From the IMG/VR virus record IMGVR_UViG_2541047434_000024: a stretch of 16,532 nucleotides of DNA; one strand, given 5' to 3'. Shown here one piece after another: positions 9,001 through 12,000 of the stretch. A program made the position numbers. Source of the DNA: a virus (taxonomy: Duplodnaviria > Heunggongvirae > Uroviricota > Caudoviricetes). Every line of letters begins with the position of its first letter. Within the stretch, counting starts at the first letter, position 1.

Positions 9001-12000
9001 AACAAACTCAGCCAGGTCCGGGGGCCACGTTTCACCCGCCCGGCAGCGGTCCATGCACTGACGGCACACCAGACGGATTTGCTGTTCAGTCATCGCACCA
9101 ATCTGGGCAATCCAGAGCTTCGAAGGTGCGGCCCCGTTCTTCTGAGTCCAGCGGTTCGAATACACCTCCCCCATGAGCTCCCACAGCTTCCAGGCCGTTT
9201 CCGTTGCTGATAAATCCGTTGTCACGTTCCCACTGTTCGCGTGCAGCCCGGATTTCCTGAACTGCCCGTGATGCCGTGCCACCTGATGCTGCATGGCTTC
9301 CCCCCTTGCTGACTGGTTTTACCTGTGCCCTGACGTGCTGCACGTGGCGGGCAAATTTCTGCTCCCACTGAACCTGCGTGAAAACCTTCCCCTCCGCCAT
9401 CCAGTAATCCCGGAATGCGGCAAGCTCAGCAGGTGTAAATTCCGGCTCAGGCAGAGCCATACCCCACACTGCTGCCCGTTGTCGAAAATCCGGCGACGGC
9501 TGCCAGACAGTAGTCATCGAAAATTTCCCGATCGGTTCGCTCAGGCCGTCCAGGTATTCAGGTTCGGCTGTCTGCAACGGCGCACCATTCGACTCACTGG
9601 TCGGAATACTCTCGCGCGCGTTATGTGTGGGGTTTAATTCTGTATCTGTATCTTTATCTGTATCTTTATCTGTATCTTTATCTGTCGTGACTTGTCGTGA
9701 CAGATGCGTGACACGTCGTGACTCATCGTGACAATCAGCATTATGTTTCCGCAGCTTTTCCCGCTCCCGCTGCGCTCTCTTGCGCTCTGCCGGGGATTTT
9801 GCCGTTTGCGAAACGTTACCATTGTCCTCTTTCAGCACCTGACGTTTTTCCCATCCGGAAATAAGGTCACCATCCAGAACCCGCCCCTGCATTGCATGCA
9901 AAATTGAATCAATTACGTCTTCCGTCACATCAAGCGCACTTGCTAAATCTTCCGTCGTGACATCAATGTGACCACGTAGTGACACGCCGTGACATGTCGT
10001 GACATTTCGTGACGCGCTCACCAGAAGATGGATATACACTGCCATCACTGTTGCGATTGGCTGTCCTGATACCCTGGCAATCGTTCGCCACTTGGGGTCA
10101 TTTGGCATGTCATGCCACAATCTGAGCCAGGCATTAGCCATACTCACCTCTTCTGATACCGAACTTTACCCTCGAACATCCGGAAGAAATCCGGCATGAA
10201 TATTGTTGGTCAATGCACGACAACAGCATTACCAGGCTGACCCCCACTGTTAGTCAGGGTGCCCCAGGCGATCGCCGCTGCGACAAAATCATCCACATCT
10301 TTCACCAGCCGATCCCTCCGTTCGACGATCTCACGGTAATATTCAGAGCTGTGACTGCGCATACGGGCCACCAGCAGAGGCGGCATTGCCTTTTCGATCG
10401 CCGGTAACAGAGCCTGCATTTTTTCAACTGCATCAGGGGTGTCTTTCTCTATCCAGCGGAAAATTTTCTGGGTATTGCGAGCCAGGGCTTCCGGATGGCT
10501 GTCGTCGTACAGTTCAGGAAACGTCATACCCAACTCAAAATAAGCCTGGGTTATTCCAGCTGCCGGAACTTTTTCGCCATCAGGACGCGCCCAGGCATTC
10601 ATCGCCATGCGGATGTGTTCATGCTTGATTTTCATGAATCCCCCCTTGGTTAGAAGGCGGATTATGATCAGAATCGGGAATGACAACCGTCGGTATGTGT
10701 AACTCATATTTGAGCGCCCCGGCAGTGACTGGCCTGAATTAGCAACGCCCATTTCCACGGAACGTCTTCCCCCCACATGCTGACTGTGGTTTTTGACGTT
10801 CCTAGAGCGGCGGCTGTTTTAACAACTCCGCCAAAATAGCCTAATACTTCTGATTTTTTCATGAGTCGCTCCATAAAACTGAACGCCAAAAGTTTAATAA
10901 TCAAAACCAAAGAAAGTCAAGAAACAAAACCATCTGTGTTTTAAAATCAAAACATGAACAAGCAAACAATATCTGAACGCATAACCCAACGTATGCATGC
11001 GCTAAACTTGAAAGGCAAAGACCTTGTCAATGCCACTGGCGCATCAAAAGGCTCCGTAAGTCAATGGATGAACGGTGGAGGAGCGCCGTCCTCGCGTTAC
11101 ATAAGTTCACTGGCAAAGATATTGAAAGTAAACGAAAATTGGCTTCTTAATGGAGGAGAGTTAAATACAGGTGATTCGCTTGATCTATCTTTACCGCCGA
11201 TAAAAACGGTTCCGCTACTATCACTTCAGCAGGCAGCAAGCTGGAGTGATTATATGAAAAATTCCTCAATAACCTCTTGTGTGCAGCTTGTCGGAGAAAT
11301 CCCGGCCAATACCTTTGCTGTTGTTCTAGAGAGTGACAGTATGTCGACATCTGGTGGTGGAGTTTCCATCCCAAATGGTTCAACAGTTTTTGTTGATCCC
11401 GATCGAATCGTACAACCAGGAAATATTGTCCTTGCCTTACCCAAAGGGACCACAACGCCTGTCATTCGCAAACTGGAGATAGAAGGGCCGGATATTCTTT
11501 TAGTCCCCACGAATCCTCGCTACCCTTCAATTATGCTGGATGATCTATCTTGCATATTGGGAGTATGCTTTAAAATTCAACAAGATATTTAACCAACCTC
11601 ATCTATTTGATTAACTGTATGCCATCGTAGTGATGGCGTAACAGCTGCCTGCTTAAAATGTTTTGATAAAAAAACATTGACCTTAAATGTTCGCTTTTCT
11701 AAACTTCATTCATTCCCTCACCCCGCCCCACAGAATGCAGGGCAATACTTCGAGTTACCAGGCAGTGGTCAGGGGTTAAGTAGCCAGCCCGAGGCGTAAG
11801 AACATGACGGCAGGGTTCAACTTTAATAACTATGCAGCAGGTTTTTGTTCCGCTACCCCGGCGTTAAGGGGAAATGAGGTCAACATGGATACGCTCAATC
11901 TTGGCAACAACGAATCTCTGGTATGTGGCGTGTTCCCCAACCAGGACGGTACGTTCACCGCGATGACGTATACCAAAAGCAAAACGTTTAAAACTGAAGC

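Follow-up and report, generated by a model that had tools for sequence, protein, structure and literature searches.

Five copies of an 18-bp palindrome, located in the 91-bp gap between a cI-type repressor gene and a divergent cro/DicC-like gene and at the promoter downstream of cI, are probably operators for the HTH regulators that the cassette itself encodes, cI and, where it is intact, the Cro/DicC-like protein, in a lambda-style switch with a leaderless cI transcript. Most likely, the locus determines the immunity of a lambdoid prophage in E. coli O157:H7 that has become defective, and its switch is an ordinary one of the lambda type. The prophage is probably Sp11, because it adjoins CP-933P/Sp12. 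Its integrase and RecE are truncated, and its cro gene is frameshifted. Of 5426 complete E. coli genomes, 1042 contain this cassette. The analysis was based on a DNA stretch of 16,532 nucleotides, referred to here as the window, and the features of the immunity region are listed in Table 1.

Predicted operators and promoters of the immunity region

The preliminary description of this DNA reported the palindrome TGTTTT-N6-AAAACA at the start of cI and at the rightward operon promoter. Both copies are present, and they are the only exact ones in the window, whereas 200 dinucleotide-preserving shuffles contained none. In the 23.5-kb locus L001, the relaxed core TGTTT-N8-AAACA likewise matches nowhere else. 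The first copy overlaps the −10 hexamer TAAAAT and the start of cI, and its final base is also the first base of the ATG codon (10954–10956), and the second is followed directly by the −35 hexamer TTGACC (11677–11682). The two-site picture is nevertheless incomplete, because three degenerate copies (OR1, OR2, and OL1 in Table 1) had been missed, and the full set has a five-site OR/OL organization.

The 18-bp pseudo-palindromic operator has the best half-site ATCAAAACA. The three OR sites are positioned 23 bp from each other between the cro/DicC-like gene and cI. The OR2 candidate contains a single good half-site (ACAAAACC). The two OL sites flank the −35 of PL, where OL1 is placed as OR1 is at PR. 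Searches for a fourth OR site near 10868–10889 and for a third OL site (11601–11618, or 23 bp from OL1) gave no motif match, and these stretches vary or have a 5-bp deletion in variants. Inspection by eye of ATCAAAAC as an IHF site led to its rejection because the TTR arm is missing.

Table 1 Coordinates of genes, promoters, and predicted operators of the immunity region (positions in the window).
Feature	Position	Strand	Sequence, evidence, and remarks
cro/DicC-like gene, divergent from cI	10619–10862	−	Pfam P22_Cro, E 6.7e-11; 'frameshifted' in RefSeq
OR1-like predicted operator	10891–10908		AGTTTA ATAATC AAAACC; over PR −10 and spacer (~−7 to −24); three-mismatch match; repeat family D1
PR-like promoter of the cro-like operon	10891–10920	−	TTGACT (10920–10915)-18 nt-TAAACT (10896–10891); promoter scan; predicted start near 10884
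OR2-like candidate operator	10914–10931		AAGTCA AGAAAC AAAACC; over PR −35; direct repeat D4, 23 bp from OR1
OR3-like predicted operator, perfect palindrome	10937–10954		TGTTTT AAAATC AAAACA; over −10 and +1 of the cI promoter
PRM-like −10 hexamer	10942–10947	+	TAAAAT; from sequence; 6 nt (CAAAAC) before the A of ATG 10954
cI-type repressor gene, 212 aa	10954–11592	+	Pfam: N-terminal HTH, C-terminal S24
Stable hairpin without U-tract	11615–11644	+	After cI stop; fold of 11585–11680: −22.2 kcal/mol, z −3.4
OL2-like predicted operator, perfect palindrome	11659–11676		TGTTTT GATAAA AAAACA; abuts PL −35 (~−36 to −53)
PL/dicBp-equivalent promoter	11677–11705	+	TTGACC-17-TAAACT (TAAACT 11700–11705); consensus promoter scan; predicted start near 11712
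OL1-like weak predicted operator	11688–11705		TGTTCG CTTTTC TAAACT; over PL spacer and −10 (−24 to −7); inverted repeat I5 with OL2
ydfA-like gene	11885–12037		Downstream of the PL-like promoter
DicF	13236–13287	+	Rfam 76.7 bits
dicB	13462–13650	+	Downstream of DicF

The preliminary description proposed that the rightward operon is silenced from the palindrome. It did not mention the divergent cro promoter, which would be the principal target of repression beside cI. A GGAG Shine-Dalgarno sequence of the cro-like operon is located on the − strand at 10872–10869. The promoter at the OL sites is, by position, the equivalent of lambda PL and of dicBp from the K-12 Qin prophage (PMC10448788), and it would head the ydfA-DicF-dicB operon. 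Its hexamers are kept in all variants, and a scan of the + strand between this promoter and DicF/dicB found no terminator-like site. The possibility that another TAAAAT hexamer (11654–11659) acts as an alternative element of the OL promoter was discounted, since the variants L007 and L010 do not conserve it.

The mechanism that we infer includes the identity of the binding protein, the order in which the sites are occupied, and the start of the cI transcript. OR1 lies over the −10, and OR2 over the −35, of the predicted leftward promoter of cro, ydaT, and the replication genes. Repressor dimers bound at OR1/OR2 and OL1/OL2 would silence the replication and dicBF operons, and the occupation of OR3 would limit the synthesis of cI itself. 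Because the perfect OL2 site lies upstream of the −35, the silencing of PL probably also requires the weaker site over the −10. The mRNA of cI would most likely start at the A of AUG, 7 nt after TAAAAT, and be translated without a Shine-Dalgarno sequence, as are those of lambda cI and CP-933P paaR2. The intact homologue of the cro-like protein has DicC as its best NCBIfam match. In the window, alignment with intact copies identifies an extra G at 10731/10732, which shortens the product to 52 residues from 76–80. With cro frameshifted, the switch probably cannot leave the repressed state.

Conservation of the predicted operators and their exchange with the repressor gene

In diverged copies of the cassette, three of the 72 alignment columns of OR1–3 and OL2 are variable, as compared to 44 of 121 columns in the other non-coding DNA (Fisher p = 8e-8), and 105 of 211 third codon positions of cI vary. 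The DNA surrounding the near-invariant palindromes diverges by ~19% in these copies. The single variable column of OR1 is a change towards the consensus (10908 C>A). None of the 18 columns of OR2 varies, but its conservation is confounded by the overlapping −35. OR3 varies only at its innermost position (10949 A>G) and OL2 only at 11664 (T>A), in both cases in L011 and L012. The support for OL1 is weaker, because five of its 18 columns vary, so that it is not significantly above the background conservation; its GTT-N10-AAC core is invariant.

The operators and the repressor gene are exchanged as one mosaic module, as is evident from three other cassettes, which encode different repressors between the same flanks and have other palindromes at the corresponding positions. 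The cassette of Tritos, with identical flanks, has an ATGTAC..GTACAT-type site three times at OR and twice at PL. That of vB_EcoS-689R5, also between identical flanks, has ATCTAA-N6-TTAGAT at OR and twice at PL, where the two sites flank the −35 with a spacing of 28 bp. The K-12 Qin cassette contains TGTTAG-N6-CTAACA at OR and twice at dicBp, in a pair analogous to that of vB_EcoS-689R5. The Qin palindrome is Oc, the operator of DicA, the binding of which has been established experimentally and genetically (PMC3441716). The mosaic boundary with the other immunity types is located at ~11719, just past the −10 of PL. In the cassette copy L013, cI is internally deleted, OL2 is damaged by the loss of 1 bp from its spacer, and OL1 is damaged too. 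Although it is a single case, such joint damage is expected if the sites are kept only alongside a working repressor. The near-invariance of the palindromes and their replacement by others in other cassettes support the proposal that they are a shared operator for the regulator of the cassette. The attribution to one repressor is less certain, as the sequence is compatible with binding by cI, by the Cro-like protein, or by both.

The cI repressor and the probable start of its transcript

The HTH domain of cI is related to those of DicA, P22 c2, and 434 repressors. Matches from the PDB include lambda cI (residues 13–204) and P22 c2 (1adr, residues 1–69 to 1–69), and the DicA profile matches cI from residues 1–71 to 1–71 with 41 bits, as compared to a family cut-off of 101. 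The recognition-helix region ATGASKGSVSQW is, like the operators, invariant across variants with 83–98% identity. An alignment with lambda cI, P22 c2, LexA, and UmuD identifies the catalytic serine of the S24 domain (SDSM). In the same alignment, cI has neither a canonical Ala-Gly (or Cys-Gly) cleavage site, the place of which is taken by Ala94-Ala95, nor the canonical catalytic lysine, the position of which is occupied by Arg172 (IRKL instead of FKKL/VKRL) with Lys173, a possible substitute, adjoining; both replacements are invariant in the family. In this alignment, cI therefore lacks the combination of a cleavage site and a Ser/Lys dyad that defines SOS-cleavable LexA/S24 proteins. A search of 5.8 billion proteins retrieved 12 relatives, all with at least 73% identity, and no homologues at intermediate distance, and a scan of GTDB genomes with the cI protein had as its only hits spurious S24 fragments in Mycobacterium and Alicyclobacillus, which did not serve for footprinting. 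The hairpin downstream of the cI stop codon may mark the 3′ terminus of the cI mRNA or contribute to its stability.

The cI open reading frame has no start codon ahead of the ATG at 10954, and an independent gene call also resulted in a protein of 212 residues. Residue 1 of cI aligns with residue 1 of P22 c2 and DicA. Residues 3–13 are invariant, and codons 10–13, which are upstream of Met14, contain four synonymous and no non-synonymous changes. The starts at Met14 (10993) or Met101 (11254), as in GenBank ON470612 and RefSeq, were rejected because helix 1 of the HTH and the regions aligned with P22 c2 and DicA extend back to residue 1, and purifying selection acts on codons 3–13. In the RefSeq genomes examined, only the C-terminal 112 residues of the repressor are annotated, likely because the true start lacks a ribosome-binding site.

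The distance of 6 nt between TAAAAT and the ATG of cI agrees with the preliminary description, as does the lack of a Shine-Dalgarno sequence, since the 25 nt preceding the ATG contain no purine-rich run. By analogy, the claim that cI is leaderless gains support, because a −10 hexamer, 6 nt, and an ATG, here a start codon assigned by homology and by the substitution pattern, are also the geometry of lambda PRM and PRM933P. The mRNA of CP-933P paaR2 has been shown to be leaderless by 5′-RACE and N-terminal sequencing (PMC8630535). Fold prediction gives no structure in the first 25 nt of the putative cI mRNA.

It is possible, but rather unlikely, that the operators are real and cI is transcribed with an A/U-rich leader from an upstream promoter, either a PRE-like one in the cro/ydaT region or a promoter-like match on the + strand (TTAACA-18-AATACT, 10819–10848). 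The TAAAAT hexamer would then be just part of the AT-rich centre of the operator, from the conservation of which it is inseparable, and the −35 of the PRM-like promoter (AAGAAA, 10919–10924) is weak. A second, CII/YdaT-dependent promoter gives rise to leadered transcripts in lambda and CP-933P (PMC8630535), and a gene for the CII-like YdaT follows cro in the window. However, the match at 10819–10848 is at chance level (three found, 2.3 expected), and the spacing of the −10 and ATG is that of two repressor genes with experimentally demonstrated leaderless transcripts. Furthermore, a leadered mRNA would have no Shine-Dalgarno sequence, and the palindrome within it would pair up to the A of AUG. 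A leadered transcript for establishment and a leaderless one for maintenance can also coexist.

Comparison with other lambdoid switches

The immunity region shares with that of lambda the divergent cI and cro genes, cI being read towards PL, a repressor composed of HTH and S24 domains, and related operators at the second promoter. The OR sites are located at −7 to −24, −30 to −47, and −53 to −70 relative to the PR start, and those of lambda at −9 to −25, −33 to −49, and −56 to −72. At both PR and PL, the placement of the sites agrees with that of the lambda operators to within ~3 bp. The start of lambda cI is preceded by TAGATT and 6 nt without a Shine-Dalgarno sequence, and that of cI here by TAAAAT and 6 nt. 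By contrast, the operators are 18 bp long, as opposed to 17 bp in lambda, and unrelated in sequence, and only two PL sites, 29 bp apart, are recognisable. The predicted PR and PRM starts are ~70 bp from each other, whereas the distance in lambda is 83 bp. This places OR3 over the −10 and +1 of PRM and OR2 at ~−31.5 of PRM, as compared to −42 in lambda. The activation geometry of lambda is therefore absent, and the −35 regions of PRM and PR overlap. The perfect palindromes OR3 and OL2 are promoter-distal, which is the reverse of the affinity order of lambda cI, and may be preferred Cro sites. OL2 is wholly upstream of the −35, with its centre at ~−44.5, from where lambda cI activates rather than represses. 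The distance between OL and OR is 722 bp, as compared to ~2.4 kb in lambda, rex genes are absent, and the S24 domain differs from that of lambda cI by lacking the Ala-Gly site and the canonical lysine.

The location of the best operators on the cI start and upstream of the PL −35, the overlap of PRM and PR, and the S24 domain without Ala-Gly and the canonical lysine could indicate a circuit wired unlike that of lambda. It would be a tightly self-limited, SOS-blind 'lock' on DicF/DicB and the replication genes, perhaps acting through a 722-bp OR3–OL2 loop. The host would have retained it in approximately one in five complete E. coli genomes, and its leaderless start would have concealed it from annotation. 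Such a circuit is unlikely.

CP-933P/Sp12 (PaaR2, YdaS, YdaT; Jurenas et al. 2021, PMC8630535) is the neighbour prophage in the same chromosome. Its intergenic region has 97 bp, in comparison with 91 bp here, and the hexamers and spacing of PR are the same (TTGACT-18-TAAACT), with the start of PR933P mapped by 5′-RACE (PMC8630535). The repressor start of CP-933P (GATAAT, 6 nt, ATG) has the same spacing as that of cI. In CP-933P, 18-bp palindromes are present at OR and again at PL, the hexamers of which match those of PR. The ydfA-leader sequence downstream of PL and the position of the YdaT gene after cro are common to both prophages. However, PaaR2 has 123 residues, is unrelated to cI, and is followed by a toxin-antitoxin pair. 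The half-site is GTTTAGTAA in CP-933P and TGTTTTGAT here, and four palindromes have been reported there, as opposed to three here. Binding and regulation have been determined experimentally in CP-933P, whereas here they are deduced from sequence.

The Qin prophage (PMC3441716, PMC10448788) has the same order of a cro-like gene, repressor, promoter, and ydfA...dicF-dicB, of which ydfA, DicF, and dicB are homologous to those in the window. The N-terminal domain of cI is 37% identical to that of DicA, with SVSQW of the recognition helix common to both, and Qin DicC is the best match of the Cro-like protein. Oc has the 18-bp geometry and outer TGTT/AACA of the operators here, and the two sites of dicBp, one over the spacer and −10 and one upstream of the −35, are positioned as at PL. 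By contrast, the inner two bases of the half-sites are AG/CT in Qin and TT/AA here, and therefore the operator specificity probably differs from that of DicA. DicA has 135 residues and no S24 domain, so that the homology is limited to the N-terminal domain of cI. The perfect site in Qin is next to dicC, whereas here it is at the cI start.

P22 c2 is 28.8% identical to cI over residues 1–204, in an alignment from Met1. The operators of P22 are 18 bp long with an uncontacted centre. Their sequence is different and, unlike cI, P22 c2 carries both a canonical Ala-Gly site and a Ser/Lys dyad.

The perfect palindromes could chiefly serve the Cro/DicC-like protein or another factor, so that cI would use degenerate sites or another motif and no cI autoregulation would be reported by them. 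The perfect copy at OR3 is where Cro of lambda, rather than cI, binds best, YdaS of CP-933P occupies the PRM side first (PMC8630535), and DicA binds the cro-proximal Oc but not the dicA-proximal site (PMC3441716). Nevertheless, both proteins of lambdoid switches act on the same operators, the sites have stayed intact in the O157 lineage in which cro is truncated, and their 18-bp length and outer TGTT/AACA are those of Oc, the operator of DicA, which is the homologue of the N-terminal domain of cI. It is very doubtful that the perfect palindromes chiefly serve a protein other than cI. That the palindromes are relics or AT-rich coincidences next to a dead repressor is extremely improbable despite the decay of the prophage, the scoring of the Sp11 repressor as 'disrupted' by Asadulghani et al. 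(PMC2669165), and the 112-residue fragment annotated in RefSeq, because chance would give no exact copy, the footprint stands out clearly from the background divergence, the 212-residue reading frame is intact with both domains, the cassette is widespread among E. coli genomes, and L013, a single case, has lost the integrity of cI together with OL2 and OL1.

The exact operator strings were not found in any paper, and the study of O157 DicC by Pan et al. 2019 (PMC6915034) gives no locus information. The immunity region is a further case of the well-known lambdoid switch, and the understanding of such switches is unchanged. Its practical value is modest: predicted operators and promoters have been defined for an uncharacterised immunity type, which would control one of the DicF/DicB copies of EHEC O157:H7, and the RefSeq annotation of cI is corrected from 112 to 212 residues. 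The DicA type, the CP-933P type, and the present type combine the same promoter geometry with different operators, and provide a natural set for studying changes in repressor specificity.

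Operator sites and promoters of the immunity region

The cassette is a textbook lambdoid immunity region, in which candidate operators are present at two control regions. As proposed in the preliminary description, the start of cI overlaps an 18-bp palindrome, TGTTTT-AAAATC-AAAACA (10937–10954), whose last A begins the ATG at 10954; the hexamer TAAAAT (10942–10947) is positioned 6 nt ahead of that ATG. The second palindrome, TGTTTT-GATAAA-AAAACA (11659–11676), abuts the -35 of PL, the equivalent of dicBp, and TTGACC, a 17-nt spacer, and TAAACT (11677–11705) come directly after it. 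This promoter was found independently by a promoter scan. A motif scan of the window confirmed that TGTTTT-N6-AAAACA occurs exactly only twice; yet the two-site description was incomplete, as both copies belong to a larger set of degenerate sites, listed in the table under lambda-style names. The exact palindrome had no match in 200 of 200 shuffles. Of 13 copies of the looser pattern GTT-N10-AAC in the window (5.1 expected), four are within the two short control regions.

Features of the immunity region and the downstream operon (window positions)
Feature	Position	Strand	Sequence or product	Relation or source
PR, leftward promoter of the cro-like gene	10920–10891	-	TTGACT-18-TAAACT	promoter scan
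OR1	10891–10908		AGTTTA ATAATC AAAACC	overlaps PR -10 and spacer
OR2	10914–10931		AAGTCA AGAAAC AAAACC	overlaps PR -35; single good half-site
OR3	10937–10954		perfect palindrome	overlaps cI -10 and +1
OL2	11659–11676		perfect palindrome	abuts PL -35 (-36 to -53)
OL1	11688–11705		TGTTCG CTTTTC TAAACT	overlaps PL spacer and -10
cro/DicC-like gene	10619–10862	-	P22_Cro/DicC family	start 10862, divergent from cI
cI	10954–11592	+	212 aa	HTH_3 and Peptidase_S24 domains
DicF	13236–13287			Rfam

The OR sites are spaced 23 bp from each other and the OL sites 29 bp, and the half-site with the best conservation is ATCAAAACA. OR3 spans positions -17 to +1 of the predicted cI promoter. The placement of OL1 at PL, over the spacer and the -10, exactly repeats the geometry of OR1 at PR (-7 to -24).

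Conservation and exchange of the module

Two independent comparative tests, a conservation footprint and the covariation of sites with modules, indicate that the palindromic sites are operators. For the footprint, the cassette was compared with its diverged copies in L007 and L010 (~81% DNA identity), L011 and L012 (84% protein identity), and L008 and L009 (~98%). In an alignment of six sequences, only 3 of the 72 columns in OR1, OR2, OR3, and OL2 are variable, versus 44 of 121 other non-coding columns (Fisher p 8e-8); in the same comparison, 105 of 211 third codon positions of cI vary. One of the three operator changes, 10908 C>A, brings OR1 nearer to the consensus, and the other two affect the innermost base of a half-site. 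Therefore, the core was defined as TGTTT-N8-AAACA, which in the 23.5-kb RefSeq O157:H7 locus (L001) occurs at the same two places only. The footprint of OL1 is less clear, with 5 of 18 columns variable, but its GTT and AAC cores are constant. None of these variants differs in the recognition-helix region of cI. A metagenome-derived copy (L013) has a cI of 178 aa (1501–2037) with an in-frame deletion in the linker, an OL2 spacer shortened by 1 bp (2105–2121, TGTTTT-N5-AAAACA), and an OL1 that has lost its GTT; it is possible that its repressor and operators are decaying jointly.

Other phages and prophages carry different repressor cassettes within the same flanks, ydaT on one side and the ydfA leader "ccaccccgcccc..." on the other, and both control regions of each alternative cassette contain a palindrome peculiar to it. 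Tritos has a site of the ATGTAC..GTACAT type in three copies at OR, one of which covers the cI ATG, and in two copies at PL. In vB_EcoS-689R5, ATCTAA-N6-TTAGAT is present at OR and, as a pair flanking the -35 with a spacing of 28 bp, at PL. In K-12 Qin, TGTTAG-N6-CTAACA is found at OR and in two copies at dicBp; this palindrome is Oc, and changing single bases in it eliminates DicA binding in vivo (PMC3441716). One immunity type gives way to another near window position 11719, a few bases past the predicted PL start, as expected if OL and PL are part of the immunity module. The repressor of vB_EcoS-689R5 (L014 1045–1689), like the cI of the window, departs from the S24 hallmarks, with Ala-Ile at the cleavage position and Thr replacing the catalytic Ser; unlike that cI, it starts after a clear Shine-Dalgarno sequence (GGGAG).

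The closest relatives studied by experiment are the modules of CP-933P and Qin. In CP-933P, the repressor mRNA is leaderless, and OR and PL both contain 18-bp palindromes. Its PR is identical in hexamers and spacing (TTGACT-18-TAAACT, window 10891–10920 and L016 34093–34122), and the same ydfA-leader sequence directly follows PL (window 11719 onward and L016 35150 onward); despite this, the two repressors are unrelated. The N-terminal domain of Qin DicA is homologous to that of cI, and the Qin operator has the same outer TGTT/AACA. The proven DicA operator Oc, TGTTAG-TCATAA-CTAACA (L015 566–585), shares the 18-bp geometry of 10937–10954, and the only differences are at the two inner positions of each half. 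The cassette falls outside the DicA family proper, owing to its different C-terminal domain and inner operator bases. It was found in three phage records only, the next-best repressors being ~30% identical, and a large protein search returned only 12 relatives of cI. A literature search found the exact operator strings in no paper, and the cassette itself is previously uncharacterised.

Start and domains of the cI repressor

Annotations of cI disagree on its start. Every RefSeq genome examined has a 112-residue "LexA family protein" (11254–11592) whose start is an internal ATG accompanied by GGAG; the start is Met14 in one GenBank phage record, and independent gene calls give 212 residues. The evidence favours 10954, the earliest start codon of the reading frame: homologues align from residue 1, residues 3–13 are invariant, and all four changes that the 81% variant carries in codons 10–13 are synonymous. 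Residues 1–69 align to residues 1–69 of the P22 c2 N-terminal domain, and the best NCBIfam match is DicA (1–71 to 1–71), with 37% identity to the DicA N-terminal domain. Lambda cI (PDB 3bdn, residues 13–204) aligns across nearly the full length. The intact 212-residue frame was probably overlooked in annotation because its start lacks a ribosome-binding site, which may explain why the Sp11 repressor was scored as "disrupted" (PMC2669165).

Inspection of the sequence verified that nothing resembling a Shine-Dalgarno sequence precedes the ATG at 10954. The arrangement of a -10, 6 nt, and ATG is shared with lambda (TAGATT-TAACGT-ATG) and CP-933P (GATAAT-TACCAC-ATG), and for CP-933P a leaderless repressor mRNA has been demonstrated by 5'-RACE, N-terminal sequencing, and mass spectrometry (PMC8630535). 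Over its first 25 nt, the putative cI mRNA is unstructured and A/CA-rich. The sequence argues strongly for a leaderless cI mRNA.

The S24 domain retains its catalytic Ser. Ala94-Ala95 (11233–11238) replaces the Ala-Gly of lambda cI, P22 c2, and LexA and the Cys-Gly of UmuD, and at Arg172-Lys173 (11467–11472) the canonical catalytic Lys is replaced by Arg (IRKL versus FKKL/VKRL). Because both deviations are invariant in the family, cI may not be RecA/SOS-cleavable and may be insensitive to RecA.

A stable hairpin with a 12-bp stem (11615–11644) directly follows the cI stop; it has no U-tract, the z-score of the region is -3.4, and AACAGCTGCCTGC on its 3' side is invariant across all variants. 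If this hairpin is not a terminator, cI transcripts would continue into the dicBF operon.

Prophage context and proposed working of the switch

Many E. coli O157:H7 chromosomes match the region at 100% identity, and in one of them (L001) the genes annotated by RefSeq are those of a defective lambdoid prophage. One side contains the replication genes O and P, ydaT, and a frameshifted Cro/CI-family gene; the other contains the "LexA family protein", a DUF1391 (ydfA-like) gene, dicB, a truncated recE, and a truncated integrase. The downstream neighbour carries paaR2-paaA2-parE2 and a 97-bp ydaS-paaR2 spacer, which identify it as CP-933P/Sp12 (PMC8630535). Therefore, the window is most probably Sp11, in agreement with the disrupted integrase and lambda-type P gene that Asadulghani et al. 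described for Sp11 (PMC2669165). A 216-residue reading frame (12037–12687, +; 212 residues from the RefSeq start 12049) takes the position of ydfB/ydfC, with ydfA on one side and DicF on the other, and a small frame on the opposite strand (12688–12909, -) comes after it. The larger frame has no Pfam match, and the version with the RefSeq start also has no NCBIfam match. In the late/Q region, Rfam identifies a sok antitoxin RNA beside a hok gene (5839–6013, -), the sRNA STnc100 (351–523, -), and two tRNA genes (1296–1369 and 1473–1545, -).

We infer a mechanism in which cI dimers at OR1/OR2 and OL1/OL2 would block the cro-ydaT-replication operon and the ydfA-DicF-dicB operon, and occupation of OR3 would turn off cI synthesis. 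Measured from PR and PL, the site positions deviate by at most ~3 bp from the lambda layout. The arrangement departs from lambda in four respects. The predicted starts of PR and PRM, the cI promoter, are ~70 bp apart, compared to 83 in lambda. Therefore, OR2 is centred at ~-31.5 of PRM and not at -42, which makes lambda-style activation doubtful. PR and PRM overlap in their -35 regions, and PRM may be stimulated on repression of PR just through relief from competition. Since OL2 alone lies upstream of the -35, repression of PL probably requires OL1 or higher-order contacts. The perfect sites, OR3 and OL2, are promoter-distal, at the positions preferred by Cro-type proteins in lambda and CP-933P. 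The cro-like gene of the window has an extra G at 10731/10732, absent from all other copies, which reduces its product to 52 residues; the "frameshifted" flags on the L007 and L009 copies merely reflect variation in G-run length near the C-terminus. Because cro is truncated, the switch of this prophage is probably fixed in the repressed state.
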